A DNA stretch of 64,000 nucleotides from Cenarchaeum sp. (lineage in GTDB: Archaea > Thermoproteota > Nitrososphaeria > Nitrososphaerales > Nitrosopumilaceae): assembly GCA_965212015.1 (NCBI GenBank), contig OZ243037.1, positions 1,504,001 to 1,568,000 of the forward strand, in the 5' to 3' direction. Position numbers and translations under genes: made by a program. Below are positions 17,219-34,016 of the stretch, one piece after another (positions within the stretch are counted from its first letter, which is position 1; every line of letters begins with the position of its first letter). The notes below the pieces were generated by a model. That model saw nothing but the letters and a program-made list of their open reading frames with translations. It ran no database searches and was not told the origin of the DNA.

Positions 17219-17273
17219 ATGTATGATACTGTCAATCGTCCTGATCAATTCACGCAAGTCCCAAATGGGAAAA

Positions 17274-17759
17274 TCATATTGCACGCTCGTGCTCGGACAT
17301 CTTGCGGATAAATCTTGCGGGCACACCTGCCCACACCTCAAACGGCTTTATCTCGGATTCTAAAACTACAGAGCCCGCCCCGATGGATACGTGATCTCCC
17401 AGTTTCACGCTGATCAGGCTCACGCCTTGGCCTATCCTACAGTCATTGCCAATCACGCACGGTTTTTTTTGTATATTGGCAGTTCTCGCAGTCATGTATT
17501 TTTCATCTGCAATGCCTACATGTGTACCAAAAATCACGCCATCACCAATTACGGTATTGCTGTTGATGTGGCAGTGGGAGTTTATCAGCGTGTTTGCCCC
17601 TATCTTTGCATCAGAGTTTATCTCACAAAAATTACCTATTACCGTGTTCTCGCCTATCTCGACACGGGGACCGATATAACACCATCCGCATATCCTTGCA
17701 GTATCAGATATTTTTGCACTCTCGTGTATGTCGTTGAACTTTCCCACTATTCTAGGCAT
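17274..17759 (-). CDS. left-handed beta-helix (hexapeptide repeat) acetyltransferase
   Basis: IGEN/IGAN/IGDG hexapeptide repeats, IGAGSVV, WAGVPAR; start overlaps upstream stop. Confidence 0.88.
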   Translation of the reverse strand: MPRIVGKFNDIHESAKISDTARICGWCYIGPRVEIGENTVIGNFCEINSDAKIGANTLINSHCHINSNTVIGDGVIFGTHVGIADEKYMTARTANIQKKPCVIGNDCRIGQGVSLISVKLGDHVSIGAGSVVLESEIKPFEVWAGVPARFIRKMSEHERAI

Positions 17760-18738
17760 ATCCGGTTCCCAGTCGTCCATGTTTTTTCCAGTCATGTATG
17801 TTCTTTACATATTGTGCGCCAACAAGACTCCATTCTGATAGAGTTTTACCGTGTGCAGCCGATATCGCTTCGTGATTGTTGTTTTTTCCTGCCCATAGGT
17901 ATCCTTTGAGCGTCCAAGGATGCTGGTATAAAAGAACCTTGATCATGATGAATAATGTCGGATGCCTGTTGATGAATCGGTTGACCCGGTTTCCAAACAT
18001 GTGTGTATTTTGTGAGCGCATTACCTGTGCCCGCATCTCGCTTAGCTCTTTTTTATTGGCATATGTCCACACTCCGGCATTGAACTGGTGCCATGGATAG
18101 TCCTCGTTTTGCAAATCCATGGAATTTACGCCAATGTCCTTGAGTGTTATCATTTTATGAGTGGCGCGCTTTTGTACGCAATCAACCATATAGGTATCTA
18201 TTCCATTATGAATTTTTTTGAATGCATCTAGATCCACATTTTCAAAATAATATGGTCTGTATATCCAGTAATTGCCCGAGAACACACTGTCATTGCGTCG
18301 TACCCTGATGCGGTAAAACACGTGTCTGATCAATTGGCCGGGATTCTGGATTAGTAGTTTTTTGGTAAAGGAGACAATGGCATTTTTGTCCCTGCCCACC
18401 ATATCGTATCCTTTTAGTATAGTGGGCCTTATGACTGTGTCCACATCAAATGCAAATATTTTGTCATTTTTGCATGCGTTATAACACTCCCATATTATGT
18501 GGGCAAGACGAAAGTTCCATTCATCAGAGCGCGCAATTTTGATAATTTTATAGTTTCTAAATGACGATTCCCCACACAATGAATCTATGAGTGCAAGAAA
18601 CGATTCGTCTGCTGGATCGTCAACTCCTATTATCAGCTCGTCCGGTTCCACTCTGATTGCAGATGGAATGGATTTTGCCGCAAATTTGCGCTCCCGCGGG
18701 GTGTCGCGAAACGCCATTACGATGCTAAATTTCCTCAT
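17752..18738 (-). CDS. putative GT-A/GT2-like glycosyltransferase
   Basis: FSIVM start, PDELIIGVD, DVD (DxD) motif; glycan-cluster context. Confidence 0.7.
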   Translation of the reverse strand: MRKFSIVMAFRDTPRERKFAAKSIPSAIRVEPDELIIGVDDPADESFLALIDSLCGESSFRNYKIIKIARSDEWNFRLAHIIWECYNACKNDKIFAFDVDTVIRPTILKGYDMVGRDKNAIVSFTKKLLIQNPGQLIRHVFYRIRVRRNDSVFSGNYWIYRPYYFENVDLDAFKKIHNGIDTYMVDCVQKRATHKMITLKDIGVNSMDLQNEDYPWHQFNAGVWTYANKKELSEMRAQVMRSQNTHMFGNRVNRFINRHPTLFIMIKVLLYQHPWTLKGYLWAGKNNNHEAISAAHGKTLSEWSLVGAQYVKNIHDWKKHGRLGTGYA

Positions 18739-19180
18739 TCTTCATCGCCTCTGTGGCGTATTCACCGCCGGCAAATCTTTCATATGCAGACTTGAGCTTT
18801 TTGAGTTCATCCAATAATGCCTTGTCCTGTGTGGTCTGCATCATCCAGTCCAACATTTTTAGCGTAAACTGTACCTGTAGAACCTCCTTTGAATTTGGCA
18901 CTATCTTGTTGTTGTACGGATGCAGATGCTGCAACTGTTGTTGCTCGGTTTTCAGCTGTATTCTATTGTGCTTGTAGCCTATCAGTGTGGCAAACGGCAT
19001 TATGGCGCAAAAGAGCAAGATGCCAAATATGTGCAACGGGATGTCCTTGAACCAGTCCGTGAGGCCATAAAGAATCAGTATAAAGTTGGAAAAATTGAAC
19101 GTAAAGGCCAGATAGGTGGTGTATCCCACGCGAAACTCCCACCATCTCCTTCCAACCCAGCTGGAATTCACAGGAGTCAT
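18725..19180 (-). CDS. hypothetical membrane protein (two TM)
   Basis: Two hydrophobic segments; overlaps the downstream GT start. Confidence 0.7.
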   Translation of the reverse strand: MTPVNSSWVGRRWWEFRVGYTTYLAFTFNFSNFILILYGLTDWFKDIPLHIFGILLFCAIMPFATLIGYKHNRIQLKTEQQQLQHLHPYNNKIVPNSKEVLQVQFTLKMLDWMMQTTQDKALLDELKKLKSAYERFAGGEYATEAMKNEEI

Positions 19181-19506
19181 GATAAATCACCACATGTGGG
19201 TAGGTCTTGCGAGAATGCGTGCCAATCATAAGCGTGACGTATGATGGAAAATATCGTAAAAGCCAGCATCCAATTGTGCCCAGATTCGTGAAAGATTCCC
19301 ATGCATATTTTGTCAGTTGTTATATATTTTAATCTGTCCATTATGTTGCGTATAACCTCGTCTAGTATATGTGATATACACGGTGATTTATCCAAATTAC
19401 GCCATAACCTTCAAAAGCATCCTTGCGGCACTGAAACTCGTGGATCTTCCATATGGCAAGGTTTTGCACGCCAAACCGGCAAAGGTTAATTAATTTAACA
19501 TGAACC

Positions 19507-20304
19507 ATGTCAATCAAATTGAAGGAAAAAAACACAGTTGTGGGCCTAGGAGAGATTGGCAGGCCCATTTTAAAGCTTCTATCTTCCGGGCATATCGCGG
19601 TAGGGTACGACCAGAATGCAAAACTGATGGATGAGAAACCATACAAGAAATATGAGAAAAATCCGACCTCGTTTTTGCACATATGCATTCCGTTTGATGG
19701 GAATTTTATAAAAAACATAAACTCGCTTTACAAAAAATTCCGACCAAAGTGCATTATAATTCACAGTACCGTCAGTCCAGAGACCACCAAAAAACTGCAA
19801 AAAAAACTTGACGTTCCGATCATTTACAGCGCAACCAGGGGGGTCCATGCGCGCATGCTCGACGATCTCAAAAGATATGTAAAGTTTTTCGCCCTGGAAG
19901 CGGATGCCCCGAAAAAAAAGTGGGCAGCTACTACATACAAAAAATTAATGAACCAGTGCGGAATAAAAACAAAACAAATGTCAAGTCCGGTCACACTCGA
20001 GCTGGCAAAAATAGTCTGCGATACATCATATTACGGATGGCTGATAAGCTATGCGCAGTTGAGCAACACGATTGCCATAAAACATGGCGTAAACTATGAC
20101 GAAATGTGGTCGTTTTCAGACGAAATCCACAAGTTTCTTGGCAATCGGCCAAAAATGCATCCTGGCTTTATTGGCGGACATTGCGTTATTCCAAACCTTT
20201 CACTGATACGCGATCAAACTTTGGCTCTGATTGCCAGTATGAATATGACATATGCTAAAAAACAAGCGCGTACTAGAAAAAAAGCCGTTAAACACAAAAA
20301 ATAA
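19507..20304 (+). CDS. short GDP-mannose/UDP-ManNAc dehydrogenase-like protein
   Basis: GLGEIG, IHSTVSP, ELAK, GFIGGHCVIPN. Confidence 0.85.
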   Translation: MSIKLKEKNTVVGLGEIGRPILKLLSSGHIAVGYDQNAKLMDEKPYKKYEKNPTSFLHICIPFDGNFIKNINSLYKKFRPKCIIIHSTVSPETTKKLQKKLDVPIIYSATRGVHARMLDDLKRYVKFFALEADAPKKKWAATTYKKLMNQCGIKTKQMSSPVTLELAKIVCDTSYYGWLISYAQLSNTIAIKHGVNYDEMWSFSDEIHKFLGNRPKMHPGFIGGHCVIPNLSLIRDQTLALIASMNMTYAKKQARTRKKAVKHKK

Positions 20305-20500
20305 TCTTGTTTTGTGCAAGCTTTACGATCAAAGTGATAGCTCCTTACAAACAGACAAAGTCATGTAGCAGGGATACAAAAAACACAAACTGTTGGCGTG
20401 TCTATGCATAATTGCGATTGTCCGCGGTACAAAACAATTTCTATGATCAACTTTTGGCTCAAATCATCTGTATATTTGCGCATGAGAGAAATTCAAATCC

Positions 20501-21265
20501 TCATAGTTTGCCCTTTTGTATCATTCCAAGCATCTCCCTTCCCGTGCAAAACACCGCGCCGCGCGACTCGAGGTGTCTTATCACATCACCGTACATGCGT
20601 CCGCCCTTCATCCGTAGCACGTTGTCGTGCCAGATTATGCTCATCATCCGGTCGTCTTTCTCCAGTATGCGATCAAAATAGGACAGCATGTTGGACTCGT
20701 CCACGCCGTGGTGCCTGTACATGAACACGTCTGCTACAGTTATCGGAAACTGTACAATGTTCTTTTTGATATACCCGTAATTCTCGGCTATAATGTCTGA
20801 CCTTGAGGGCATTATGGACGAGTCGTATAAAATCCCGAGCCGCGCAAGCTTGTCCAGCATGGCCTCGTCATAGTTCAGATAGTGGACGCGGTTGCCGATT
20901 ATCCTGTTTTTGGCCATACCGGAAAGATCGTCGTACTCTTTTTTGATCTTCTCCATGTCGTGTATGGAGCCCGGATCCAGGTGCAGGCCGATCTCCCAGC
21001 CGGAGGACTCTAGTTCGTTTATCCGGGTTTTGTACTCTGTGAGATCCCCGCCCTCATATACGGTCCTGAAAAAGAACGTGGAACGGCACCCGTGTTTTTC
21101 CTCAATGTCCATAATCTGCTCAAAATTATCGTACGGATTTGTGGAATCGATATTGTCTATTACCGACTGCTCAAACCGCTCGCGTATGTCCAGTATGTGC
21201 TGTTTTGGGGGGCCGGCAAGCCTCCAGTCCACGTCATGGCTTAAAAACACGTACCTTTCCAACAT
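20501..21265 (-). CDS. polysaccharide deacetylase family protein
   Basis: SHDVD, STFFF, EIGLH, RVHYL, YDSS, IIWH. Confidence 0.85.
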   Translation of the reverse strand: MLERYVFLSHDVDWRLAGPPKQHILDIRERFEQSVIDNIDSTNPYDNFEQIMDIEEKHGCRSTFFFRTVYEGGDLTEYKTRINELESSGWEIGLHLDPGSIHDMEKIKKEYDDLSGMAKNRIIGNRVHYLNYDEAMLDKLARLGILYDSSIMPSRSDIIAENYGYIKKNIVQFPITVADVFMYRHHGVDESNMLSYFDRILEKDDRMMSIIWHDNVLRMKGGRMYGDVIRHLESRGAVFCTGREMLGMIQKGKL

Positions 21266-21299
21266 GTAAGAATGTCAAACACGGGAATTAAAGACTTGC

Positions 21300-21857
21300 C
21301 TATTGGTTCAGCCGCTTCCAGGATATAATGCTGGAGCCTTGGGTATCCTGCGGGCCAAGCGTCCTCGTCTTGTATCCGAGACCCTCCAGAAAATCCGGAT
21401 ATACTGGACTGGCCTGAATGTCGTTCTTGTTGTTGTTGTACGAGGTATGGACATCCGGATACCTGCCAAACGGCACGCCGAGGACTATTAGGTGTTCGGC
21501 CGTCTTTTCAAGCTTGGAGATCGTAGGTATAATATCCTCCCTGGGCAGGCAATCGATGCCGTGCCAGTAAAACACTGTATCAAACCTGCCCAGATTCAGC
21601 CCGTCCACGTTTCGTACGTCCCCCTGCATGACGGATATGTCCGTACCGGACAGCTTTTCCTTGAGAAATTCCACGTTTTTGTCAAATATCTCGAGGATTG
21701 TAATGCGGTACGAGTTTTCCTTAAACGAATCCAAAAGGTGCTGCCGCCTCGTGTTTGCGCCCACATACAAGACGCTCTTGAATCGCGTAGTAAAGAGATC
21801 CGGAATGCATTCCCGGAGAGTGCGCTCCCTCTCCTGTTTGATTGGATCGGTTGCCAT
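21300..21857 (-). CDS. class I SAM-dependent methyltransferase
   Basis: SVLYVGA motif I, ILEI, GDVR, FDTVF. Confidence 0.8.
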   Translation of the reverse strand: MATDPIKQERERTLRECIPDLFTTRFKSVLYVGANTRRQHLLDSFKENSYRITILEIFDKNVEFLKEKLSGTDISVMQGDVRNVDGLNLGRFDTVFYWHGIDCLPREDIIPTISKLEKTAEHLIVLGVPFGRYPDVHTSYNNNKNDIQASPVYPDFLEGLGYKTRTLGPQDTQGSSIISWKRLNQ

Positions 21858-22033
21858 GTATATGAGTCACAGAATCCGGCATTATAAACACTACCCGGGG
21901 ATCAAACGGGTTTGGATATGTGGCCTGAGATGCCGCATGGCAGTATACGGATTCGAATTATTGCGCGCGACCGTAATGCTGTAAAGTTATCTCAGATACT
22001 ATAGTATGTTGTGGACTGGCTAAAAACTGCACA

Positions 22034-22174
22034 TCAATCCACCGCTTCGTTCAGTTCCTTGATGAATTCCTCGGCACTGGTCGTCTTGTGCTCTTCCGGA
22101 TGGGCATAAAACTCTAAAATAGCTGCAATCTCTTCCTCTGAGAGCGGAGGCGAATCAGTCTGTGTGTCAGGCAT
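22034..22174 (-). CDS. 46-aa acidic antitoxin-like peptide (not in the ORF track)
   Basis: MPDTQTDSPPLSEEEIAAILEFYAHPEEHKTTSAEEFIKELNEAVD; EEFIKEL-type ending typical of archaeal RelB-like proteins. Confidence 0.5.
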   Translation of the reverse strand: MPDTQTDSPPLSEEEIAAILEFYAHPEEHKTTSAEEFIKELNEAVD

Positions 22175-22207
22175 GTATTTTTGGATCATATACGGCCTTA
22201 AAAACAT

Positions 22208-22537
22208 TCATTTGCTAGTCCAGCATGGAAATTTATTGGTTTTTTTGCACTTGCCGGTAAATTTTACGTTTTTTATCCAGATAACCTGACCGGGTAATCC
22301 TTTGTATTTTTTTGGCGTCTTGAATTTTTTGTATGATTTTATGTGCCAGCCGTGTTTGTATCCGAGTTTCCCCTTGCAGATCCTGTCAAATATTACGGTG
22401 CCGTATGCGCAGCCGCGCTTTGCAAGTATTATTTCCACATTCAGCTTTCTGCACTTGAAATTCCTATACTCGTATTTCTTTTTGCCGGTAAGCATCTGTT
22501 CGATGAACTCTTCCTTGACGAGTAGGCCAGGTGTCAT
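22208..22537 (-). CDS. ASCH (PUA-like) domain protein
   Basis: L.VK....QMLTGKKKYEYR (GxKxxExR), AYGTV, GW.I, GQVIW. Confidence 0.8.
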   Translation of the reverse strand: MTPGLLVKEEFIEQMLTGKKKYEYRNFKCRKLNVEIILAKRGCAYGTVIFDRICKGKLGYKHGWHIKSYKKFKTPKKYKGLPGQVIWIKNVKFTGKCKKTNKFPCWTSK

Positions 22538-22679
22538 GATGTTTGTAATGCCTGTATGTATAAAAGCATGATCTAAACCAGCATTTAAAAGCAATTTTGC
22601 CTATTGACTATTTTAGATAGAAAGCACGGATCAAGGCACGCCATGAACAAAATAGCGCATGTAAAAGCTGTTTTTTGTC

Positions 22680-22832
22680 CCCGTCGATGGTCTGTGACTC
22701 TGCGGGTCTCCAATGGTGCTAAAGATGGCCATATACAACAGGATGGTGCTGGCTGCATGACATCATGGATTGGACTACTTTGGCACGGGTTGGAGGATCA
22801 CGTTATGTGGTAAGGGAGTTGTGACACAGAGC
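22680..22832 (+). mobile_element. possible IS5-family right-end remnant
   Basis: RRWSV and MVLKMAIYNRMVLAA* fragments resemble an IS5 transposase C-terminus; ends in gagttgtgacacagagc. Confidence 0.35.
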
Positions 22833-22869
22833 AGATCTAACTTCAAAAACCTAGACGGATACCGATGTT

Positions 22870-24315
22870 TTAATGTCTGAATTTCCTCTCTAATCGTCGT
22901 TTTAATGCTACAAAAAGACTACCCATAATTGGCAACAATGTAATTCTTAGAATAAAATCAATTTCTGATTTTTGAATTTCTTTGTTAAAATCATAAAATG
23001 GGAAAAAACCATTTAAGCTTCTTAATAATGAATTAACAAATGAATTCCAAGATAATTCAATTTTTGTATCATCAAATATGAAATTATTTCCACACCAAAA
23101 ATATATAGTAGAACTCAAAATTATTGGGAAAATAATATAAATTGGTCTTTTGATTGATTCACCATATTGAGCAATTATATTATACAACCAAAGAATAGAA
23201 AAATGTTTTTTAAAATTATGTTTTTTGATAGTAAATGCTTTATTTTCATGTTGAATTGTTTTATATTTTCTCCTTAATTCCATTTCTCTAATAAAAAATT
23301 CTCCAGAAATATCATATCTCATCTGTTGATCAAAATTCTCAATTAATTGTCTATAGATATCTTTGACACTTTCCAACAATATGGGCGATTCCTTTTTTTT
23401 CTCAAGTTCACGTTCATCTAAAATTTTATATTGAAAATTTTTATGACCTATTGACTCATAAATCTTCAATTTTAATTTATTAGATCGTGATTTTTCAATA
23501 TTTGATTCTTTCCATGATATTTTATTTCCAAATTTGATCTTATTAATTTTAGTTTCTAAAAATGAAATTTGTGAAATATTTCCATTAAAGTTTGTTTGAT
23601 TATTGTTTGAAAAGCTGGTATTTTCAAATTTTGTTTTTTTATTAAACTTAGCATCTTCAAAATTTGCTTGATAAGCAAATAGACTATCTTTAAAATTTGT
23701 AATCGAATTAAACTGTGAGCGAATAAAAATTGCATTCTGCTTAAAATTTGTTTTCCAAAATGATGTTTCTTTACCTCCAAAATTAGCTGAAGTAAAATCT
23801 ATTTCATCAAAATATACATTACTAAAATTAGTATTTTTAAATTTACAATCTTTAAAATTAGCTGGTTTTTCAAATTTGCAAAATCGGAAATTTATTTGTT
23901 CATTATTTGTTGCATTAGAAAAATTAACTGTTTTATGAAATTTAGCAGCAAGAAAATCCGCTCCTTTTTTGAATCTTACATTTGCAAAAGAAATATGATG
24001 ATTAAATTCCATATTTGATAAATTTAATTTATCAACAAATGTAGTTTTGTCAAAATAGATAGGTACTATGTTCAATTTTGGATTGTCAAAAATCAAATTT
24101 GGGAGATAATATCCTATACATTCTATTCTAAAGCCGGAATTATACAATTTTCGAAAAAATTCTTTTCTAATTATTTCAGAGTTATTTTTATTTTTCAAAA
24201 AACCTTTATCATGAAAAATACAAGTTTTTTTTTCAGCTTGTGCATTTTCAGTACAATGATAATATCTAGGTCCATCACTGTCCAAATATTCATCAGAATA
24301 GATACATTTTTCCAA
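22870..24315 (-). CDS. pentapeptide-repeat protein with C-terminal membrane (ion-channel-like) segment
   Basis: A.F...F 10/11-mer repeats; N-terminal C..C..CIFH; YGES..RP followed by TM helices and LKRRLER. Confidence 0.85.
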   Translation of the reverse strand: MEKCIYSDEYLDSDGPRYYHCTENAQAEKKTCIFHDKGFLKNKNNSEIIRKEFFRKLYNSGFRIECIGYYLPNLIFDNPKLNIVPIYFDKTTFVDKLNLSNMEFNHHISFANVRFKKGADFLAAKFHKTVNFSNATNNEQINFRFCKFEKPANFKDCKFKNTNFSNVYFDEIDFTSANFGGKETSFWKTNFKQNAIFIRSQFNSITNFKDSLFAYQANFEDAKFNKKTKFENTSFSNNNQTNFNGNISQISFLETKINKIKFGNKISWKESNIEKSRSNKLKLKIYESIGHKNFQYKILDERELEKKKESPILLESVKDIYRQLIENFDQQMRYDISGEFFIREMELRRKYKTIQHENKAFTIKKHNFKKHFSILWLYNIIAQYGESIKRPIYIIFPIILSSTIYFWCGNNFIFDDTKIELSWNSFVNSLLRSLNGFFPFYDFNKEIQKSEIDFILRITLLPIMGSLFVALKRRLERKFRH

Positions 24316-24504
24316 TGATTGGATCTGAAATCCATATTATTAGTGCTTATCTATGGTTATAGCCATAATACAAGTATGTCACCACATGCATGCCATATTA
24401 TTCAGATATTTAAGTGTGATTTTGACCAAATTTCCAAAAATAGTCGATTTTCTTAGTGCAGAAATAAGATAAGTTTATTGAGGCAAAGAATAATTCAGTA
24501 TAGT

Positions 24505-25719
24505 ATGACAAAAGAACTGGAATCCATCATTAATGCAGCAAGAGAGGATTTTGAGAACAAAAGATTGGTTGCTTTCATAGGTGAAAGACATTCTGGAAAA
24601 ACCGTCATTTCAGCATTACTAAAACATGCATTAGTGAATCATTTTGTTAAAAATGAGGAAAATTGGAATGCTTGGGTCATTCAGGGTAGTGACAGAATAA
24701 ATGAAATTTTAGACAAATTAAATCATGAAGAATTTCCAGCCTCAACTTTACCTGGAGACGCTAAACCAATCACAATGGAAATTTTTAGTGGAATGGGAAC
24801 TGGTGGTGGAATTGAAATTACATTACAAGATATGGCAGGAGAATCAAGAGATGAATTGTTACGAAATGAATTTACAAATGAAGAGAACAGATTAAAAGAG
24901 ATCATGACGGCAAATCCAATAGAAGGAAGACGATATGGAATATTATCATATTTACCATTTACAAGTATTTATGTCATAATTGTAGACTGTTCAAAATATA
25001 AAAATTGGAATCAAGAGCAATCATACTTGGCTGCAACTATGAACAATTTGTTAAAAATAAAAAAAGCCGTAGGCACAGACTTTAAAGGAAAAATAATGGA
25101 TCCCATAGCAATTATTTTTTCAAAATATGATCAGTTATCACAAGAAGATCAAGATACGGCTGAAAACCTACTAAAAAAATTACCGGAATTCACAACTGCA
25201 TTAAACATTGCACATAGAGGAGAATTAAAATTATTTTTAAGTCAAATTAAATCTGTTAAGCGAACTGAAGATGAATTAGCAATATTAGTTAGTCAAGAAA
25301 TTCAAAGAAAAAATACAAAATTAGACAATTTAAATAAGATTATTAAAAGTTTAGAAATGATAATAAAAGATAAAGATCAAGAATTAGAAGAAATAGTACA
25401 AGAATTAGAAGAAATAGAGCAAAAATTAGAAGAAGCTAAACCACAAAATAATCCTGCCGAGATTGAACAAATCACTCAAGAATTAAATGAAAAAAAAGAT
25501 CTGATAAATCAAATGGAATCTGAACGTATAGAAATAATTAAAGATATACATAATTCCAAGGCAAATAAATCAGAGATCGAAAAAAAATTAAATGAAAACA
25601 AGCCTAGTGCAAAGGAAATAGGAATAAGTGAATTCAAACCATCATCATCGCCCCTAGAATACAATATTGAAGAATATCTAGGCTTTATTAGTTGGATTAT
25701 TGAAATGAGTAAAGAGTGA
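24505..25719 (+). CDS. TRAFAC-clade GTPase (double-GTPase/GAP1-system type) with coiled-coil insert
   Basis: G1 GERHSGKT, G2 AST, G3 DMAGE, G4 SKYD; about 110-aa coiled coil before the final helix. Confidence 0.8.
   Translation: MTKELESIINAAREDFENKRLVAFIGERHSGKTVISALLKHALVNHFVKNEENWNAWVIQGSDRINEILDKLNHEEFPASTLPGDAKPITMEIFSGMGTGGGIEITLQDMAGESRDELLRNEFTNEENRLKEIMTANPIEGRRYGILSYLPFTSIYVIIVDCSKYKNWNQEQSYLAATMNNLLKIKKAVGTDFKGKIMDPIAIIFSKYDQLSQEDQDTAENLLKKLPEFTTALNIAHRGELKLFLSQIKSVKRTEDELAILVSQEIQRKNTKLDNLNKIIKSLEMIIKDKDQELEEIVQELEEIEQKLEEAKPQNNPAEIEQITQELNEKKDLINQMESERIEIIKDIHNSKANKSEIEKKLNENKPSAKEIGISEFKPSSSPLEYNIEEYLGFISWIIEMSKE
25378..25440 (+). repeat. 3 x 21-bp tandem repeat encoding heptads QELEEIV/QELEEIE/QKLEEAK
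   Basis: caagaattagaagaaatagta caagaattagaagaaatagag caaaaattagaagaagctaaa. Confidence 0.8.
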
Positions 25720-25722
25720 CAA

Positions 25723-27528
25723 ATGGCATTATGTGAACATTTTATCTACACGGCAGGGATCATAGATAATCAAAGTGGTTATCAAATCATCTCAAAATCT
25801 TCAGGCATAAATAATAAAATAATTTCTGAACTAGATAATTATCTCTATCCCTTGGGAGTAAATCTAAGTGAATTTTTGATGTCCAAATCATTATTGGTTT
25901 TAAATGAACATGTTGTTTTCACAAAAATTCGAAATGTAGGCATAGGGTTTGATGGGAGACCAGATACACTCTATAGCCATACGATTATAATGAAAAAGAA
26001 GGATTTTAAAAAATTTAGCAATGATTCTAGAATTTTTGATGATGAGTATGTAGAGGAGACACAGCCAATTCGTATGTCATCAATTTTAATTAAAGAAAAG
26101 AAATTATTGCCTGATTTTACATGTGTCGACGAATTAGGAATATCCACAATAGAAAAAATTTTTAGAGGGTTATTAGATAAGAAAAAAATATTATTAATAG
26201 ATAATGATTCTTCAGAATTAATTCAAAGCATATTGTCTTTGATGCCTTCCTCAATGAAAATTGTATCCTATTCAACGAATGTTGCTGAACCAAAGAGGCA
26301 ATCAAAATATAATATGATACAAATTAAAAAGAAAAATCTAATAAAATTTCCTAATAGTGTTAAAATAGATAAAAAAATGGATTTAAAAAAGATTGAAAAA
26401 AATGATTCATTACTAAATTTTTGTATTAAATATATTCTAGACATAATAGATTTAAAAGAATCAAAAAAATTAATAGAGATTAATCATCGTATTGAATCCA
26501 TAATGGGAACCATTACCGAAAAAATTATTTTAGGAACAAGTTTATTAATTATAATAGAAAAATCACAAAAATTCCCAAAACAACACATATTGGGATTGAA
26601 AAAAATGTTGCGAGAAATATCGGTTAAACAAAATGAAATTATTAATGAATTTGACCATAAACTAGATGAACTACTCATTAAACAAAAATCAGGAGAGTTT
26701 GAAATAGAAAACATAATTTCAAAATTCAACGATAAAAAATTAAATATCACAATTCTTGGAAAAATGTTCGGAGAATTAACAGGAGACAATACAGGTTTAC
26801 GTAATTCACTTTTTCATCATCTAGTAAAAAAGAGAATATTTGATTTTGAAGAAAATGGACAGGACATATTATTAGAATCAATTAATAGATATTATAATAA
26901 CGAGATCATACGTGGATTTGTAGAAGAATCTGAATTACATTTTGCATTCAAAAAAATTTTTCAGAATAATGAAATAAACGAATATCAAAAAATCAATTTA
27001 TTTTCCAAGGCAATTAAAAATGCATTATGTTTCAATATGGAATTTCTTGAAAATCTATTCAAATTTAATGTATACGATTTAAAAAATTATGATCACATAA
27101 TACAATTTAATAAAGATATCAAATGGGTGTTTAATTCAAAAGAATTTTATCAAAATTTTAATTCAACAAAAATCTTGAAAATACTAATAAATATCCAAGA
27201 GAAAGTTATTCCATTGTTTCCTAAAAATATAAAAACTGAAACTAATGATCCAAAATTTTGCCAGATGGAAGAAATTCTGAACATCTTACTCAATACTGCA
27301 CGATATATGTTGACTAGAAAAAAATATTCCTTAGGTTCTAGCAAAAATGATATCATATTATTTGAAAATATTCTTTCTGAATTTCTATCTAAAAATTCCT
27401 TACAAAATACAAAATATGATTTACTTAATCCCGATTTGACATGTAGAGTTTCTTCAATTTTCAGTTGGATGTTGTTCTTATGTTTGCCTTATAGATGTAA
27501 TAATTGTATAACATTAGATCAGTCTTGA
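25723..27528 (+). CDS. GAP1-N2-like (GTPase-associated protein 1) domain protein with helical C-terminus
   Basis: HFIYT..SGYQIISKSSGI ... G.DGRPDTLYSHTII pattern; later LLSL.P...VSYSTN-like segment (ILSLMPSSMKIVSYSTN); starts 3 nt after the GTPase stop. Confidence 0.72.
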   Translation: MALCEHFIYTAGIIDNQSGYQIISKSSGINNKIISELDNYLYPLGVNLSEFLMSKSLLVLNEHVVFTKIRNVGIGFDGRPDTLYSHTIIMKKKDFKKFSNDSRIFDDEYVEETQPIRMSSILIKEKKLLPDFTCVDELGISTIEKIFRGLLDKKKILLIDNDSSELIQSILSLMPSSMKIVSYSTNVAEPKRQSKYNMIQIKKKNLIKFPNSVKIDKKMDLKKIEKNDSLLNFCIKYILDIIDLKESKKLIEINHRIESIMGTITEKIILGTSLLIIIEKSQKFPKQHILGLKKMLREISVKQNEIINEFDHKLDELLIKQKSGEFEIENIISKFNDKKLNITILGKMFGELTGDNTGLRNSLFHHLVKKRIFDFEENGQDILLESINRYYNNEIIRGFVEESELHFAFKKIFQNNEINEYQKINLFSKAIKNALCFNMEFLENLFKFNVYDLKNYDHIIQFNKDIKWVFNSKEFYQNFNSTKILKILINIQEKVIPLFPKNIKTETNDPKFCQMEEILNILLNTARYMLTRKKYSLGSSKNDIILFENILSEFLSKNSLQNTKYDLLNPDLTCRVSSIFSWMLFLCLPYRCNNCITLDQS

Positions 27529-27560
27529 TTAGAAAATATCCTTGATGCAAAAACACACCT

Positions 27561-27740
27561 ATAGTCAAACGCATAAATAATTTGAAACTGGCATAACTCT
27601 CATGAAATATTTCATCACATCTAACGAATACTTCTTTGTCCTGAAATACTCACACAGTGAATATTTCATCTCGTCAAATGTACGGTAATATTCAGACACC
27701 ATCAAGTCATGTTTTGCCCGTCTCCACCATTCCTCCATTA
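27561..27740 (-). mobile_element. IS630 3' remnant
   Basis: Minus strand reads MEEWWRRAKHDLMVSEYYRTFDEMKYSLCEYFRTKKYSLDVMKYF, homologous to the C-terminus of the 15197-15784 transposase. Confidence 0.8.
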
Positions 27741-27888
27741 GTTGCTATGCGTATTGACAATACCCACAAATTTTTTCAACCAACAGGTTTAGATCAAGCA
27801 TGATCGTCGCATTTGCTTGATGTCTAAATCTGAGATCAGGCAAATACACGAATTACAGCAGGCAATCAAGAAAAAAGACCAGATAATC

Positions 27889-29024
27889 GAGCCTTGGGCA
27901 TAATTTTCACCAAAAAAACCACGGAATTGACTCAACAGTACAGCATTTGCCTTACCAATTTTGGCCTAGGGACCTTGTAATGCAGTTATGGTACACCATC
28001 ATCTGATACACCAGCACACAGCTCAGCATAAATGATCAGGATTTCTCAAACCCTCTTACCGGCGATTGATTGATCCCAAACGTTTCCTTTAATGTGCCAA
28101 ACAGCGGCTCGATCGATATCTTTCTGTCGCCGTATATGCGCTGCCCTTTTTTGGAGCGGTAAAACCGCACCAGTTTTAATCTTGCGGGAGTGGTCAGGCG
28201 GAATTTCCTTACGGGACACACCAGCCTCATCCTGCATTTTTTTGTATATTCGTACAGCTTGTGATCATCGTATTCTGGATCGCACAAAACGTACTGGAAT
28301 AATCCTGCAAACGGGTTCACCAGATCGCAATATTGTGAATTATCCGCCGCATTTGCCGGGGTAAAACTCGCATACAGGGGAACGGCGATCCTTCCGGTGG
28401 AGCAGCTCATATGCAGCTTGAATCCGTATACCCACCTTTTGTAATTGGAGTATCCCCAACGTGCATCAGTGTCGATTCTAAAGATCGGAATCCGATTTTG
28501 CTTCCTGTCGGATTGATTCCATACGGAACCGAGGGATCGTATCAGGGAAGAGTCTACAGATGCAGAGACGATATCTACCAGTCCTTTCGATACAAAGACC
28601 CGTCCCATCTTTGAGATGAATTGTTCTATTGGAATCACGTGAAATCTCCTGTCAAGTGTTCTTCTGTCTGGAACGGTAGAGCCTGCACATCTGTAGCAGT
28701 CGATTGTCTGGTGCCTGGTGTGACAGAAAATAATGCAGCGTATTGTTGCTTGGAATTCCCTTCCACGTTTTTATGATTAACAGCTGCAGCATCAGGATCG
28801 TGGGATAGATGTACGGCCTGCCACGTCTCACCGCATCCTCGTACAGACGCATCGTTCCCACTAAATACAAAACAACAATAAGAGGCGACCGTGTTAGAAT
28901 GTTGCTGGGGATCTTTGTCTTTTTCATCGTACAATGAACAAAGAATCACAGGGATCCTTGGCTCTTTTTATCGAAAAAAACTTGTGAATTGGTCAAAAAT
29001 TAGGCACAATTATGCCCAAGGCTC
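27889..29024 (-). mobile_element. IS with frameshifted DDE_Tnp_1-type transposase (IS5/IS982-like)
   Basis: Terminal inverted repeats GAGCCTTGGGCATAATT; VDSS, D.DARWG, YGFKLH, CDPEYD, R.SIEPLFG.LK; reading frame split near 28670. Confidence 0.88.
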
Positions 29025-29210
29025 AATTACTTTGTGTTTGTAAACACAAAGTCACACCTTGCTGAGACCATATTTGATATCATTAAACGCATGAACGCGG
29101 TAATGTTCGGCATACTCCTCGTTTTTGCATTCAAAATCATTATCTAGTGAATCAGTTGGCATGAGCTGAATTATATCAACATCATTATAGTCGATAATCT
29201 TCATATTCAT
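29025..29210 (-). pseudogene. truncated GNAT toxin-like gene (TacT/AtaT-like N-terminus)
   Basis: MNMKIIDYNDVDIIQLMPTDSLDNDFECKNEEYAEHYRVHAFNDIKYGLSKV*LCVYKHKVI, then cut by the IS. Confidence 0.5.
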
Positions 29211-29224
29211 AAAAATATAACGCG

Positions 29225-29365
29225 TTACCGCTCTTTTATCCTGTTGGCTATTTTTAGTGATTTTTTAATGGCACGTATGGATTCGCTAGTTGGACCGGCC
29301 TCCAAGCTCTCGATTACCTGCTTCCACTGTTTGTCGCTTAATGGCTTTACCTCTCTTAATCCCAT
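29225..29365 (-). CDS. 46-aa DUF1778/TacA-like antitoxin peptide (not in the ORF track)
   Basis: MGLREVKPLSDKQWKQVIESLEAGPTSESIRAIKKSLKIANRIKER directly upstream of the GNAT-like gene. Confidence 0.5.
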   Translation of the reverse strand: MGLREVKPLSDKQWKQVIESLEAGPTSESIRAIKKSLKIANRIKER

Positions 29366-29508
29366 ACTACATTCTACAAAGAAATAATATATGAAGTTGC
29401 CGCCTAATTCTATTTAAACAAACTCGAGGCACAACATGTCTGAATTTTGATCTGTTACCGATTTTTTCAGACTCGGATTTTTTTTCACTCAATATGGGCA
29501 CGAGAGAT

Positions 29509-29895
29509 TTATGATCTAAATAATTTTGTGACCCTGCCAGAATTGTCCATTAATTCCATTTTTCGACGTAGGGCCATAAACATATATGTTACTTTGTCCT
29601 TGTTTACAAAACTGACGAGTACGGAATTATTATTCCCATAGGTATTTTTGATATATTCGTGCAGGTGATATGGATTCTTGTCTGCACGGCAAACTTTTTT
29701 CTTGTATATTGCCACGCACATGTCGGGGTATTTTTTTCGCAACTTGTCATAGTTTCTTGTAAGCCATCCCAGATTTTCACAAAAATCTGCAAAATCCTTT
29801 TTGCGCTTTGCATCATGTACCGAAAACAACCTTTTGGCCCTCATGGAATCCGGGGATGACGCATACTTTGATAGTGAAATGATCTTTCCGGACAT
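29509..29895 (-). CDS. DUF5678-like protein
   Basis: WLTRNYDKLRKKYPDMCVAIYKKKV pattern. Confidence 0.6.
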   Translation of the reverse strand: MSGKIISLSKYASSPDSMRAKRLFSVHDAKRKKDFADFCENLGWLTRNYDKLRKKYPDMCVAIYKKKVCRADKNPYHLHEYIKNTYGNNNSVLVSFVNKDKVTYMFMALRRKMELMDNSGRVTKLFRS

Positions 29896-30071
29896 GGCTT
29901 ACATATAGATTGGGCATTGTTATAGTTAAATGTTATCCGATCCCAAGCATATAACGACACCCATCCTGCCTAAAAAACAACCATAACGCAAAATTCATGT
30001 CTAATTGCCGTAATCTCATATGCCCGGGCAATACGCGCCAATTCAATTCCGAGGCCAAACACGGACATGAT

Positions 30072-32516
30072 CTATGCCTTTCTGCATTTCTTGCATTTTG
30101 CAGGCAACGTATCGCCTCCCGCCTCCAGATATTCAACCAATACCTCATCTGATCCCTCGACCCCAAATATTGCCCTGATGGACTCGAGCCCTTCTGCCAC
30201 ATCTCCGCACTGTACACATGTGCGCGCATAGGCATCATCCGGCTCGTCCTCCTCGAGATCTACCTCCGGCTCCTCGGGCTCTGCATCCGGATTATCTGCA
30301 CCCCAGCTCTTCCAGTACGGCCGGTATATCTTCCATCCCAGCTCCACGTCATCACCTGATCCGCGCAGCTGGAAATTATCATCAATGTCCACCAGCAGGA
30401 CATCCTCTGTCCCCCCGCTCTTTGTGCCCCTCATCCCTCGCCCGATCATCTGCGTGTACAGTAGGGTGCTCTTTATGGGCCTACCAACAAAGACACAGTC
30501 CACGTTTGGCGCATCAAAGCCGGTGGTCAGCACGTCAAAGTTGCACAATACCTCCAGGTCTCCAGAACGGAACAACTCAATGGCATTCACCCGGGAATCA
30601 AGGTCCATTTTAGAGTCGACATACCTTACCCTGATCCCGTATAGCGTCTTGAGATACATGGCAATCTGCCTGGAATGCTCGACGCTGCACCCAAAGAACA
30701 GTATCTTTTTCTTGCCAGTCTCTTTCAGGCCGTGTATCTCTTGTATGATGAGCTTGTTTCTCTCAAAGTTCCTGCCAATCTCCTTTAGGGTGTTTTTCCG
30801 GAATTCGCCAAACTGGTTCATGTGCTTTATGTCATCCTCGCCGAGCATGATTCTGTCGGACTGGAGTATTTTGTGGTATACGTCGCAGAGAATCTTTCGC
30901 CGTATAAGCTTGTGGTACAGGTGCTTTTGCTGCTCCTCGGGCATAACGGGCACCTCAGAAGGCCGCTCCAAAATCTCAATGTGCGTGCTTGACGTGTTTG
31001 TGTCTCCGTCGTTGGCAGTAACAGTAAGGGATATCCTGTACTCTCCGGGCTCGGGGAACCGGAATGTCACGTTCTTTGTCCTCTCAAACCTCCACACTTT
31101 TCCGGCGGCCTTTTTGCCCCGGGATATCTTCCAGTTATAGTCATCCTCTCTGATAAAGCCGTCCCTATAGTATGATCTTTTCCCTAGGATTCGAACATCC
31201 TCGTCTGCATGCGCAAACATCTGGCAGTCGATTATCGCGTGCGGATCAAAGTTGTCGGCCCCGTCATAGTGCGAGATGCTCGGAAAGAACACTCCCGCAT
31301 ACCGCCTTTTGAGCCGCTCGGTCTCCTCATTGTTGCCGCGGCCCTTGAACGGCGTGGCAGTAAGGCCGATTAGTATCACGCCCATCTCAGAGATCTCTTT
31401 TTTCCTATTGTCCCAGTTGAATCCCATCTTTCTGAGCGTGTCAGAGTATGACTGGCCCGTGGAGTGGTGCGCCTCATCCATTATTATACAGGATGTTAGC
31501 CTGCCGAGTGTTTCCAGCTGCGAGGGATCCCGCTTGTAGATCTTGTGAAGCGACTGGATGGTGGCGACAATGACGCCCTTTTCGTCGAACAGCTCGTCCA
31601 TTTCAAGGCTGGGCAGCTCGCCGCCCTGGCCCCAGAACCTGTGAAGCCGCAGCGTGGTCCCGCGCCTGCCAGACGACTCAAAGACGCTCCGAAAGGTGCT
31701 AAAGGCCTGCTCGCAGAGCTCGCCGGACTGGGCTATCCACAGGATGAATTTTGAGTTGCTCTGCTGCTCGTTTTTGGATTTTTTTCCGCCGTTGAGCCAC
31801 TCTATTAACGTCTCGACTATCATGCGCGTCTTGCCAGAACCGGTGGGGACTGCAATCAGCTTTCGCTTTACCTCGCGGCCGCTCTCGTCAAGCTCTTCAC
31901 CCTCCAGCATCCTTGTGAGGACCATCCCCGTGGAATTCTGATAGTCGTATAACGGGTTTAGCTGTACGTGGGGCTCTATAACCTCGGTGTCCGGCAGGTG
32001 CTCGACGTGCTCCTTTTCTGCCACGGCAGGCGGCAGTCCCAGTATACCTGCCAGTCCGCCGCACAGCTTGTTGGCCGGATCCAGGGCTATCACACCGTTA
32101 ATGTCCTTGATTGCCGCCGCCCTGCCGGCACTGACGGAGGATTTTACCATGTCCAGTATGTCATCCTTGTGGACGAGTTTTTTGTCGATTACGGTGTTTA
32201 GTATCAGATCCAGGAACAGGCGGCGCTTTACGGGGTCGTTCTCGATGTTTCTTAGAAACCGCACCCCCACGCTGTCAAAGAGAATCTCGGCCAGCCTGCC
32301 AGAGTTTGATATTTTCTGGGCGTCGTGGCCAGAAAACATGCCCAGAATGCTCGGGTTGACTCTGGACAGGATGGAGGATAGCTCTTCGATCTCCCACCAT
32401 TCCCGGAATTTTTCAATGCACGATTCCTTTATGGTCTTTGCGCCGTCCTTTGGGTTTTTGGACATATCTGTCATGTCTGAGACGGGCGAATTTATTAACT
32501 CTTCAGAGTGCGTCAT
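30072..32516 (-). CDS. SF2 DEAH (ResIII/SSL2-like) helicase with PKD-like insert and C-terminal CxxC..CxxC
   Basis: PTGSGKT, DEAHH, LTATP, LTTGFDAP, QMIGRGMRG; insert Y.W...F.FPEPGEYRISLTVTANDG. Confidence 0.88.
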   Translation of the reverse strand: MTHSEELINSPVSDMTDMSKNPKDGAKTIKESCIEKFREWWEIEELSSILSRVNPSILGMFSGHDAQKISNSGRLAEILFDSVGVRFLRNIENDPVKRRLFLDLILNTVIDKKLVHKDDILDMVKSSVSAGRAAAIKDINGVIALDPANKLCGGLAGILGLPPAVAEKEHVEHLPDTEVIEPHVQLNPLYDYQNSTGMVLTRMLEGEELDESGREVKRKLIAVPTGSGKTRMIVETLIEWLNGGKKSKNEQQSNSKFILWIAQSGELCEQAFSTFRSVFESSGRRGTTLRLHRFWGQGGELPSLEMDELFDEKGVIVATIQSLHKIYKRDPSQLETLGRLTSCIIMDEAHHSTGQSYSDTLRKMGFNWDNRKKEISEMGVILIGLTATPFKGRGNNEETERLKRRYAGVFFPSISHYDGADNFDPHAIIDCQMFAHADEDVRILGKRSYYRDGFIREDDYNWKISRGKKAAGKVWRFERTKNVTFRFPEPGEYRISLTVTANDGDTNTSSTHIEILERPSEVPVMPEEQQKHLYHKLIRRKILCDVYHKILQSDRIMLGEDDIKHMNQFGEFRKNTLKEIGRNFERNKLIIQEIHGLKETGKKKILFFGCSVEHSRQIAMYLKTLYGIRVRYVDSKMDLDSRVNAIELFRSGDLEVLCNFDVLTTGFDAPNVDCVFVGRPIKSTLLYTQMIGRGMRGTKSGGTEDVLLVDIDDNFQLRGSGDDVELGWKIYRPYWKSWGADNPDAEPEEPEVDLEEDEPDDAYARTCVQCGDVAEGLESIRAIFGVEGSDEVLVEYLEAGGDTLPAKCKKCRKA

Positions 32517-32685
32517 GTCTGCTCTGTGGATTCAGGTTTGAGGGGATTGATCGCAGTTTGAAGAGCCGGATCTAACTTGAGGATTTGGCCGTATTCGGAC
32601 CCATTATTTTGGTTCAGACCTGCAGAATATGGCCCACACACGTGATGGATCATGTTTTTATAAATAGCGAACAATTAAACAAGTG

Positions 32686-32970
32686 ATGAAAATGAATGAA
32701 GCGATTTTAAGCGATTTTATCGACATGATTTTGAAGCAAAATAGCGTCCAACCATACGCGATTTTTTTTGATAGTAATTATGGAGATGATGAGGACATGA
32801 TCTGTAGTTTCTTCAGTTTTCTGGTATCTAGATGTATAATTAGATATGCTCCAAGATACGTCAGTCATGGAGTATATGTATTCTCAAACCCTGGACGTAT
32901 TATCATGAAAGACAAGAAAAAAAGAAATAGCTTTCTTAAAGACTTTATGAATTTTTATGATTCGCCTTGA
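32686..32970 (+). CDS. hypothetical protein
   Basis: 94-aa ORF after a TTTATAAA box near 32657. Confidence 0.45.
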   Translation: MKMNEAILSDFIDMILKQNSVQPYAIFFDSNYGDDEDMICSFFSFLVSRCIIRYAPRYVSHGVYVFSNPGRIIMKDKKKRNSFLKDFMNFYDSP

Positions 32971-33009
32971 TCACGTTAAGTTTTTATTCCTGTCCTGTAA
33001 TGTGATATT

Positions 33010-33663: not shown

Positions 33664-33667
33664 TATA

Positions 33668-33958
33668 ATGCAGGATGAAGAAATTTTCAAATTGAATCCT
33701 ACAAGACAATATGAAAAATGTAGGAAAAAATTAGATGATCATCTTATAACTGATTTAGATAACAAATTAGTTGAACTTGTAAAAAAACCAGATTCCACAT
33801 TAGCAACACCTCTTAAAGGTAATCTTTCTGGGAGATATGCAATAAGATTTGGTAAAAATACTCATAGATTGATAATCAGGATCAAATGGAATTCCAAATC
33901 TATCATATTACTTTATTTGGCTGCTCGAGCTGTCGTGTATAACGGAAAAATGTGGTAA
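33668..33958 (+). CDS. RelE/ParE-family toxin
   Basis: 96 aa, basic; PLKGNLSGRYAIRFG..HRLI...R..VY. Confidence 0.85.
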   Translation: MQDEEIFKLNPTRQYEKCRKKLDDHLITDLDNKLVELVKKPDSTLATPLKGNLSGRYAIRFGKNTHRLIIRIKWNSKSIILLYLAARAVVYNGKMW

Positions 33959-34016
33959 AATATAATTATAAGTCATTGTTTTGTCAACCCAATAAACCCA
34001 ACGAGAAATAAACGTA

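Follow-up and report, generated by a model that had tools for sequence, protein, structure and literature searches.

The 64,000-nucleotide window analysed here, from Cenarchaeum sp. (contig OZ243037.1, positions 1,504,001 to 1,568,000), carries at positions 22870-27528 a block of three intact open reading frames (ORFs). They encode a pentapeptide-repeat protein with transmembrane (TM) helices (PRP-TM, 481 aa, reverse strand), a GTPase (forward strand) and a protein of 601 aa named GAP1 (forward strand). The block is a horizontally acquired three-gene island. It is probably a single-copy, three-gene variant of the GAP1-N2-type systems centred on a DO-GTPase, which were predicted to act in biological conflicts (Kaur, Burroughs, Iyer and Aravind, eLife 2020, PMC7159879), and the clade to which it belongs was encountered here in Nitrosopumilaceae alone. 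This estimate covers the reading as a whole, and each step of the mechanism described below is graded lower. Judged from the sequences, the trio appears to be a variant of the predicted systems with third components new to them, the kind of system being itself a prediction. We infer binding of the GTPase by GAP1, its regulation and a role in defence. Here and below, statements on published systems refer to the accessible text of the sources cited. The block consists of the following features.

22870-24315, reverse strand: PRP-TM gene, 481 aa, encoding a zinc-knuckle, pentapeptide-repeat and two-TM protein (from ORF, Pfam and hydropathy)
24316-24504, no strand: intergenic spacer from which the PRP-TM and GTPase genes diverge (from ORF positions)
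24505-25719, forward strand: gene for a DO-family TRAFAC GTPase, 404 aa, or 413 aa from TTG 24478 (from alignment and Pfam)
25723-27528, forward strand: GAP1 gene, 601 aa (from family membership, AlphaFold2 models and fold searches)

The sequence motifs place the GTPase in the DO family of TRAFAC GTPases: its P-loop is intact, and it carries the Walker-B glutamate of the family and a guanine motif of the [ST]KxD type. The start codon ATG 24505 is the one common to the homologues, and an alternative TTG is located at 24478. The motifs noticed in the initial annotation of the window are present, with Walker A (GERHSGKT) at residues 26-33, Walker B (DMAGE) at 109-113 and SKYD at 206-209, and the key residues are conserved in 26 relatives. 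In the alignment of 26 sequences, G..GKT, G112, E113, K207 and D209 are invariant or nearly so. The suspected affiliation with the DO-GTPases was also borne out. Translated from the ATG, the protein matches Pfam DO-GTPase2 with 27.0 bits, which is exactly the curated cut-off, and among the aligned relatives DO-GTPase2 is matched by 21/26 and DO-GTPase1 by 18/26. A coiled-coil insert of about 130 residues (approximately 245-375) varies in length between subtypes and is absent in short relatives. It is followed by the C-terminal motif PLEYNIEEYLGFISW, in which P383, Y386, Y391 and W397 are invariant in the same alignment. Matches of the GTPase to the JetC, LmuB and ZorA models of PADLOC were rejected as coiled-coil noise only.

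The GAP1 gene begins 3 nt past the GTPase stop codon, and the strings YT...GYQ and GFDGRPDTLYSH are present in the 601-aa protein, all as read initially. The Pfam family GAP1-N2 (PF20013) was matched by 39 of the 42 aligned GAP1 relatives at E<=0.01 (best 9e-11). By this family-level criterion of sequence, the 601-aa protein is a GAP1 protein with a GAP1-N2 N-terminus. The ESM-Atlas neighbours of its residues 1-300 bear GAP1-N1, GAP1-N2 and GAP1-M, the latter in 11-13% of the members of the neighbour clusters. The DO-GTPase family is defined by its Walker-B glutamate (Kaur et al. 2020, PMC7159879); this residue and the position of GAP1 downstream of the GTPase fit the published definition. The system is present in a single copy in the window's genome. 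A second weak GAP1-N2 Pfam match in the same genome (E 0.036) was considered spurious, since GAP1 profiles give none at E<=10. None of the seven pattern matches among viral contigs encodes a relative. Residues 1-300 matched no protein of 1,053-3,005 aa, which is weak evidence with regard to fused forms.

The fold of GAP1 was modelled with AlphaFold2, both at full length, with an alignment of 42 rows, and for residues 1-300 alone. All structures cited for proteins of the block are predictions. The full-length model has a mean predicted local distance difference test score (pLDDT) of 88 and a predicted template modelling score (pTM) of 0.70, and the N-terminal part folded alone reaches 91 and 0.90, respectively. 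In the model, an antiparallel sheet flanked by helices (residues 1-110) is followed by an alpha/beta domain (120-216) and then by helices up to residue 300; this part (nt 25723-26622) corresponds to a longin+DENN-like module. Residues 323-570 (nt 26689-27432) are modelled as a HEAT/ARM-like helical repeat. This helical arm occurs in the forms of about 575-600 aa and is missing from those of about 355-450 aa.

Foldseek searches pointed to DENN and longin folds, as had been anticipated from the window. The leading matches of the full model were DENND1A/B-Rab35, FLCN-FNIP2, DENND10, C9orf72-SMCR8, TagF and the Lst4 longin domain. Ranks 4-19 were held exclusively by longin, DENN or Rag-type proteins, namely a Lokiarchaeal Roadblock-Longin protein, GATOR1, VAMP7, Lst4, TRAPP, FNIP2, the SEA complex, C9orf72-SMCR8, Pseudomonas TagF and sedlin, together with FLCN, whose DENN half aligns with residues 129-296 of the model. 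The domain model (1-300) gave seven matches at E<=1e-3, all of them DENN-type. No structure of the BFVD database matched the DENN-like GAP1 model at E<=1e-3. The GAP1-N2 domain (5-92) is thus predicted with high confidence to be a longin sheet, and the N-terminal 300 residues a DENN-type module. In eukaryotes, modules of this type act as exchange factors and activating proteins for Rab, Arf and Rag GTPases. Residues R79, H86 and P175 are invariant across the GAP1 family, and R79 lies in the loop joining strands 63-71 and 83-91 of the longin sheet. In the longin-type GTPase-activating proteins (GAPs) FLCN, Nprl2 and SMCR8, the arginine finger is contributed by the longin domain. By analogy with them, R79 is a candidate arginine finger.

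The distribution of the family was studied in 401 genomes of the class using a profile search with GAP1 relatives. GAP1 proteins were found in 21/401 genomes, all of one family (Nitrosopumilaceae), i.e., in 20/223 other members of this family besides the window's genome and in 5/81 genera. Wider flanks were collected for 20 matched places in 17 genomes, where the ORFs were scored with profiles made for this analysis, and 19 metagenome contigs were compared as well. Sixteen of the latter (16/19) retain DNA upstream of GAP1 and were used for the GTPase count, and 13 are evaluable for PRP-TM. These neighbourhood counts come from kin and are not independent. The linkage of the two genes, expected from the window, recurs elsewhere: a GTPase gene is located directly upstream of GAP1 in 19/20 genome places and in 16/16 evaluable metagenome contigs. 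The exception (L053) is an orphan GAP1 gene with no GTPase at E<=1. At two further places one partner is split, the GTPase being in two pieces at L043 and GAP1 in two pieces at L048.

The third gene of the module is not constant. A full-length PRP-TM relative is located directly upstream of the GTPase gene, on the same strand, in 8/20 genome places. In the metagenome contigs PRP-TM is adjacent in 7/13 evaluable cases, six of them upstream on the same strand and one (L072) downstream and convergent. Thus, the PRP gene is co-directional and directly upstream of the GTPase in 14/15 of the other PRP-type loci, and the divergent orientation found in the window is unique among 16 such loci. In L072 (L072:1820-6236) the pentapeptide gene was observed downstream of GAP1 on the opposite strand; the convergent L072 and the divergent window indicate that the position of the PRP partner is not fixed. 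Locus L054, from genome G291 (same-genus label, high G+C, flanks 67.5%), contains two systems 7 kb apart, at L054:13478-15862 and L054:2992-6883. One is a co-directional PRP-GTPase-GAP1 trio, and the other is a divergent GTPase-GAP1 pair, in which the GTPase has a long N-terminal extension.

In other loci the place of PRP-TM is taken by different genes. A protein of about 700 aa with multiple winged helix-turn-helix (wHTH) domains is encoded upstream of the GTPase instead at eight genome places (L043-L048, L050 and L052) and in five metagenome contigs. A RelA/SpoT-type nucleotidyltransferase fills the slot at L040:9780-10769 and L041:9791-10777 (both on the reverse strand), with Pfam E-values of 3e-22 and 4e-20 and an NCBIfam GTP diphosphokinase match of 6e-15. 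The wHTH and RelA/SpoT proteins, otherwise unrelated, have in common a C-terminal domain of about 100 aa (blastp 1e-13 to 5e-5) with no Pfam family, which is possibly a system-specific adaptor; PRP-TM does not carry it. Conceptually, the domain is comparable to the adaptor domains reported from GAP1-N1 systems (Kaur et al. 2020, PMC7159879). The third gene occupies an exchangeable slot of the effector type; the slot is read as an effector position because RelA/SpoT, a toxin-prone enzyme family, fills it in sister systems.

A GAP1 tree was built from the first 300 residues of 35 rows, from which L048 (split), L053 (orphan) and four fragments (L077, L079, L080 and L081) were excluded. In this tree the loci with a wHTH partner form one clade (Shimodaira-Hasegawa-like approximate likelihood ratio test, SH-aLRT, 99), as do those with a RelA/SpoT partner (99), and loci with a PRP partner are scattered among the other deep branches, which requires four changes. 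Pairwise distances were compared for 15 PRP-type loci, L074 being left out because its PRP gene is cut. They co-vary for PRP-GAP1 (r 0.60), PRP-GTPase (0.74) and GTPase-GAP1 (0.67), and 0/2000 permutations gave values as high. Common host ancestry contributes to these correlations, so they attest to co-inheritance rather than contact.

PRP-TM is the pentapeptide-repeat membrane protein that had been proposed for this gene. It matches Pfam Pentapeptide_3 with 63.4 bits (cut-off 27, E 2.3e-17), and hydropathy reveals two C-terminal hydrophobic helices, TM1 at residues 391-410 (nt 23086-23145) and TM2 at 451-473 (nt 22897-22965). The repeats span approximately residues 88-262 (nt 23530-24054). 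The nine GAP1-linked members of the family align over their full length. Residues C4, C21, C32 and H35 (nt 24211-24306) are invariant in them and form a CCCH zinc-knuckle pattern. A juxtamembrane helical region, YRxL..N....Y..G.FF.REMEL.R.Y, is conserved after the repeats, and the motif YGxSxxR before TM1 is common to the nine members. The protein ends in a basic tail, KRRLERKFRH, of which the ending RKFRH is again common to the nine. Basic residues adjoin the cytoplasmic ends of both helices, and by the positive-inside rule the repeat domain and the tail are probably cytoplasmic.

The last 195 residues of PRP-TM constitute a module present in 2,723 representative clusters at E<=1e-3, 262 of them at E<=1e-30. 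The module is C-terminal in 150/150 matches listed, and the consensus of the best 150 retains the CCCH-repeat-helix-TM plan. Within the class, the PRP-TM family occurs in 28/401 genomes, including families with no GAP1 match. Among eight further loci with a stand-alone PRP-TM gene (L055-L062), neighbours include integrases in L056 and L061, AbiV also in L056, a KAP NTPase in L055 and a primase-polymerase in L058. That 4/8 of these loci adjoin an integrase, AbiV, KAP NTPase or primase-polymerase hints at a single-gene element in mobile islands.

The sole NCBIfam match of PRP-TM is the Hailong effector HalA (NF051894), with an E-value of 6.1e-5 over one collinear stretch, residues 152-418 versus profile positions 56-281 of 338. 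This stretch runs from the repeats through TM1, and the N-terminal CCCH knuckle lies outside it. Profile searches of the PDB also returned HalA (9nyi, 3.9e-6), through the repeats only; by sequence, the repeat region comes closest in the PDB to pentapeptide proteins of the Qnr/McbG kind. The profile of 150 PRP-TM sequences likewise matches PDB chains via the repeats only. A hint at the potassium-channel family Ion_trans_2 among the ESM-Atlas neighbour clusters found no confirmation in Pfam at E<=0.1.

The description of the block as AT-rich, intact and bounded by remnants of insertion sequences (IS) in the initial annotation proved correct. All three ORFs are intact at the positions given above. 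The guanine plus cytosine (G+C) content of the block is 25.9%, compared with 46.8% for the remaining window, a gap of 21 points, which suggests a recent import from a low-G+C relative. In 12/12 related genome loci measured, the module is also lower in G+C than its flanks, which fits a mobile cassette. The PRP-TM gene and the pair do diverge as annotated; the length of the spacer, put at 190 nt, is 189 nt from ATG 24505 and 162 nt from the upstream TTG. The borders of the block and the elements next to it are as follows.

22713-22862, no strand: left border, short multi-copy repeat, a remnant of an IS or a miniature inverted-repeat transposable element (MITE) (from same-genome repeat matches)
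27559-27891, no strand: right border, multi-copy repeat, an IS remnant (from same-genome repeat matches)
27565-27738, reverse strand: 57-aa ORF inside the right border repeat, with no Pfam match
28036-28638, reverse strand: DDE transposase fragment, 200 aa (Pfam DDE_Tnp_1, 2.7e-15)

The left flank (22713-22833) has eight further copies in the same 1.76-Mb genome, with 80-92% identity, and bases 22830-22862 of the left border match two more places (94-97%). The right flank (27559-27891) recurs, in parts, at eight further places (82-97%). A terminal inverted repeat or a target duplication linking both borders was looked for and not found, and no tRNA was found within positions 15000-36000 of the window. 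The block has no DNA counterpart in four same-genus genomes, and no empty insertion site could be defined in them. All that these genomes have in common with positions 16000-34000 is the nearby helicase gene (67-71% DNA identity).

According to the mechanism favoured here, the DENN-like module of GAP1 would dock on the GTPase and set its nucleotide state, with R79 as the candidate arginine finger in that control, and the variable helical arm would take in a cue from the invader. The switched GTPase may then release or assemble the membrane protein via the coiled-coil stalk and the conserved C-terminal helix. Finally, PRP-TM would permeabilise or depolarise the membrane, leading to an outcome of the abortive-infection type, for which HalA offers a precedent. 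PRP-TM is, on this analogy, a putative membrane-damaging or channel-forming effector.

A wider proposal can be put forward tentatively, as a possibility with somewhat less than an even chance. GAP1 proteins may be true prokaryotic DENN modules (longin + DENN core) regulating a dedicated P-loop GTPase. The eukaryotic machinery of guanine nucleotide exchange factors (GEFs) and GAPs for Rab, Arf and Rag would then have kin among the mobile GTPase-centric conflict systems of archaea and bacteria, and may even have arisen there, and in the Nitrosopumilaceae branch the switch would gate a membrane channel with a pentapeptide crown similar to HalA. The accessible text of Kaur et al. (2020, PMC7159879) mentions neither a longin nor a DENN fold. 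In the accessible text of Zhang et al. (2012), the eukaryotic module is given as the sole known place of DENN and d-DENN, and the longin part alone is derived from prokaryotic MglB-like proteins. According to a 2026 preprint of the same school as Kaur et al., GTPases in defence contexts are often found together with profilin-longin-like domains; GAP1 is unnamed in the accessible part of the preprint. No paper naming GAP1 a DENN or longin protein was found in literature searches, whose coverage of subscription journals is poor, so that this does not prove the likeness to be unpublished.

Several results weigh against the reading of the block as a GAP1-N2-type conflict system, or against parts of it. 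The GAP1-N2 match announced in the initial annotation stood for the family and did not stand for the window protein alone, which scores 19.4 bits over residues 5-92 (E 1.2e-3), below the Pfam cut-off of 24. Pfam GAP1-M was matched by 1/42 relatives (E 0.008) and GAP1-C by 0/42. The block has no FNIII-repeat protein, the hallmark third gene of the published N2 type, and no FNIII family was found in the ORFs of the block, its neighbours or the scanned neighbours of related loci. One or two N-terminal zinc ribbons are carried by 60% of DO-GTPases and are usual in the N2 type (Kaur et al. 2020, PMC7159879), whereas the GTPase of the window has neither zinc ribbons nor TM segments; no zinc ribbon or Cys-rich N-terminus was found on it, and its P-loop begins at residue 26. 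The CCCH motif is here on PRP-TM, not on the GTPase. PADLOC has no model for GAP1 or PRP-TM. Experimental support in defence was found in the literature for no DO-GTPase/GAP1 system, and the family rests on comparative genomics. Literature searches on GAP1-N2 and DO-GTPase returned only Kaur et al. (2020) and a passing mention in the 2026 preprint.

The same weighing applies to the fold and to the membrane protein. The TM-scores of the domain model are modest, 0.38-0.45 (DENND1A, DENND1B, DENND10 and TagF), topping out at 0.45 because the two halves hinge differently. GAP1 and DENN proteins have a sequence identity of 7-11%, so that the likeness is structural only, and no Pfam DENN (uDENN/DENN/dDENN) or longin family was found on GAP1 at E<=0.1. 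Hence, a likeness of fold and possibly of working is claimed, and not membership of the DENN family. As to PRP-TM, its divergent orientation in the window makes co-transcription with the pair impossible. All eight stand-alone loci (8/8) lack an adjoining GTPase or GAP1 gene, and in L057, L059 and L060 PRP-TM lies beside housekeeping genes; PRP-TM can thus do without the GTPase system and is an autonomous module recruited by it. The match to HalA amounts to 22.4 bits, with an equivalog cut-off of 250, and HalA is matched by 2/9 family members. The profile of the last 195 residues (16 sequences) found nothing in the PDB below E 0.7, neither HalA nor a channel.

Four other explanations of the trio have to be weighed. 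The roles of the partners could be reversed, PRP-TM being a sensor or membrane anchor that detects, e.g., invader DNA or a DNA-binding protein at the membrane via a DNA-mimicking beta-helix, and the coiled-coil GTPase being an effector that assembles on membranes in a dynamin/GBP-like manner. Several facts are in line with this. The insert of about 130 aa in the GTPase is a coiled coil of subtype-variable length, the repeat region is closest in sequence, among PDB entries, to proteins of the Qnr/McbG kind, the crown of HalA binds an oligonucleotide (review PMC13434031), and non-enzymatic variable modules were proposed as sensors by Kaur et al. (PMC7159879). The short-GTPase subtypes, however, have no coiled coil, so it is not the general effector of the family, and sister loci hold a RelA/SpoT enzyme in the very slot of PRP-TM. 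RelA/SpoT-type enzymes are usually effectors or signal makers (toxSAS toxins). On balance, we regard the reversal as unlikely. An accessory cell-biology module that is mobile by chance, serving membrane localisation or as a polarity switch of the MglA/MglB kind, seems distinctly improbable. The patchy spread (21/401 genomes, 5/81 genera), the G+C below that of the flanks in 12/12 loci, the IS borders, the swapping of the third gene between loci and the defence-type neighbours within the window all argue against it. The points in favour of such a module are that prokaryotes use longin/roadblock partners of small GTPases for housekeeping (Zhang et al. 2012), that the nearest prokaryotic structure, TagF, belongs to a regulator of a secretion machine rather than to an immune effector, and that the defence role of the trio is so far a prediction.

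The mobile, AT-rich and IS-bounded state of the block would also suit a selfish addiction cassette of the toxin-antitoxin kind, in which the GTPase-GAP1 pair restrains a membrane toxin and the cassette stabilises the island; Hailong HalA is indeed toxic when its partner is inactive (review PMC13434031). Partnerless PRP-TM genes, found in 8/8 further loci, would be intolerable for an unguarded toxin, and we give this explanation little credence. The line between addiction and abortive infection is blurred, which makes it only partly a rival. Least credible of all, with a very slim chance, is that the PRP-TM gene is a mere neighbour in the window and that the GTPase-GAP1 pair alone is the functional unit. 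The gene does lie on the opposite strand, and its relatives do occur alone elsewhere, but PRP-TM adjoins the pair in 15 other loci, its distances co-vary with those of both partners, and the gene has the 26% G+C of the block and lies within the same repeat borders. The reading as a three-gene variant of the GAP1-N2-type conflict systems is retained as the probable one. The initial annotation had named three outcomes that would overturn it (no GAP1-N2 match, homologues of the two genes unlinked elsewhere, a prior archaeal listing of the arrangement); each was checked, and none overturned it.

The surroundings of the block fit an island of variable and defence-type genes, and they also hold transposase fragments and many glycosyltransferase genes. 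An OLD-type protein of 604 aa, with an AAA_15/AAA_21 ATPase and an OLD-like TOPRIM nuclease (Gabija GajA / OLD type), is encoded at 4635-6449 on the forward strand amid glycosyltransferase genes. AbiEi antitoxin-like and AbiEii nucleotidyltransferase toxin-like genes are located at 34621-36272 (forward strand) and overlap by 4 nt. In the 814-aa ResIII/Helicase_C protein at 30072-32516 (reverse strand), a PKD-like insert separates the helicase lobes and the C-terminus is rich in cysteine; among PADLOC models it is matched best by a type IV methyl-directed restriction enzyme (1.3e-12). A second AT-rich patch, at 33000-34000 (27-30% G+C), contains a 217-aa ORF (33010-33663) with no Pfam match and may be imported. 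An EVE-domain protein, followed by a PALP enzyme and a ThiS-ThiF fusion, is encoded at 41836-44984 (forward strand), a 1165-aa subtilase at 46839-50336 and a HATPase_c_3 protein at 50430-52364 (reverse strand). A DDE_3 (IS630-like) transposase fragment at 15197-15784 (forward strand) lies between paralogous alpha/beta-hydrolase genes at 13653-14813 (reverse strand) and 16037-17218 (forward strand).

Little is known about the defence and conflict systems of ammonia-oxidising archaea, and the trio adds to them a recurrent three-gene module with swappable third genes, present in 20/223 other Nitrosopumilaceae genomes. In this module a widespread, uncharacterised membrane protein family (C-terminal module in 2,723 clusters) stands where the published GAP1-N2 systems have their third partner, and the family thereby receives its first functional context. 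The predicted longin+DENN fold offers a testable GEF or GAP mechanism for GAP1, so far merely named an 'associated protein'. If the likeness of fold reflects homology, it would also bear on where the eukaryotic DENN module originated.

The closest known systems are the GAP1-N2-type systems of Kaur et al. (2020, PMC7159879). Both they and the block combine a TRAFAC GTPase with a Walker-B glutamate and a directly downstream GAP1 with a GAP1-N2 N-terminus; both occur in mobile, patchy neighbourhoods in which a constant pair is accompanied by a variable third component, often at the membrane. The initial annotation had regarded the single GTPase as an unusual minimal version, which is not the case, since in the accessible text of the same paper two GTPases are given for only 38% of the known systems and one for 62%. 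Nor is GASH to be expected here, being a component of the GAP1-N1 type, whereas the N2 type has the FNIII protein as its hallmark. The block differs from the published systems in having no tubulin, HSP70 or kinase theme, and in its third components (PRP-TM, a multi-wHTH protein or RelA/SpoT), which are not described for them in the accessible text; pentapeptide repeats are mentioned there only for vWA systems. The host also differs: Kaur et al. report the systems from 'a few archaea', naming Methanosarcina mazei and Cuniculiplasma only, and the hosts here are Nitrosopumilaceae. In two supplementary files of that paper, Nitrosopumilus species appear only in the background organism table. The claim that the arrangement is uncatalogued in archaea thus holds for the text and these files, the neighbourhood source data lying outside this comparison, so that a prior listing is possible.

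With the eukaryotic DENN modules (DENND1A/B-Rab35, DENND10, FLCN-FNIP and C9orf72-SMCR8), GAP1 has in common the predicted fold of longin and central DENN domains; the partner is here a DO-GTPase, and not Rab, Arf or Rag. The likeness is one of fold only and may reflect either homology or convergence, and a GEF or GAP activity of GAP1 is putative. TagF, an accessory protein of type VI secretion (PDB 9t0n, 6iz8), matches the GAP1 model in fold, with no Pfam sequence match. We know of no cognate GTPase for TagF. HalA, the anti-phage effector of the Hailong system, is a tetrameric ion channel with a cytoplasmic crown, which depolarises the cell when released (PMC13434031). In HalA as in PRP-TM, a pentapeptide-repeat domain on the cytoplasmic side precedes membrane helices at the C-terminus, and the WGSSISR of HalA lines up with the YGxSxxR of PRP-TM before TM1, a stretch that scores nothing alone. 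In contrast to HalA, PRP-TM is partnered by a GTPase-GAP1 pair and not by HalB, and the block contains no nucleotidyltransferase. HalA is cited here by analogy, as an example of what a protein of this architecture may achieve, and not as a relative of PRP-TM.

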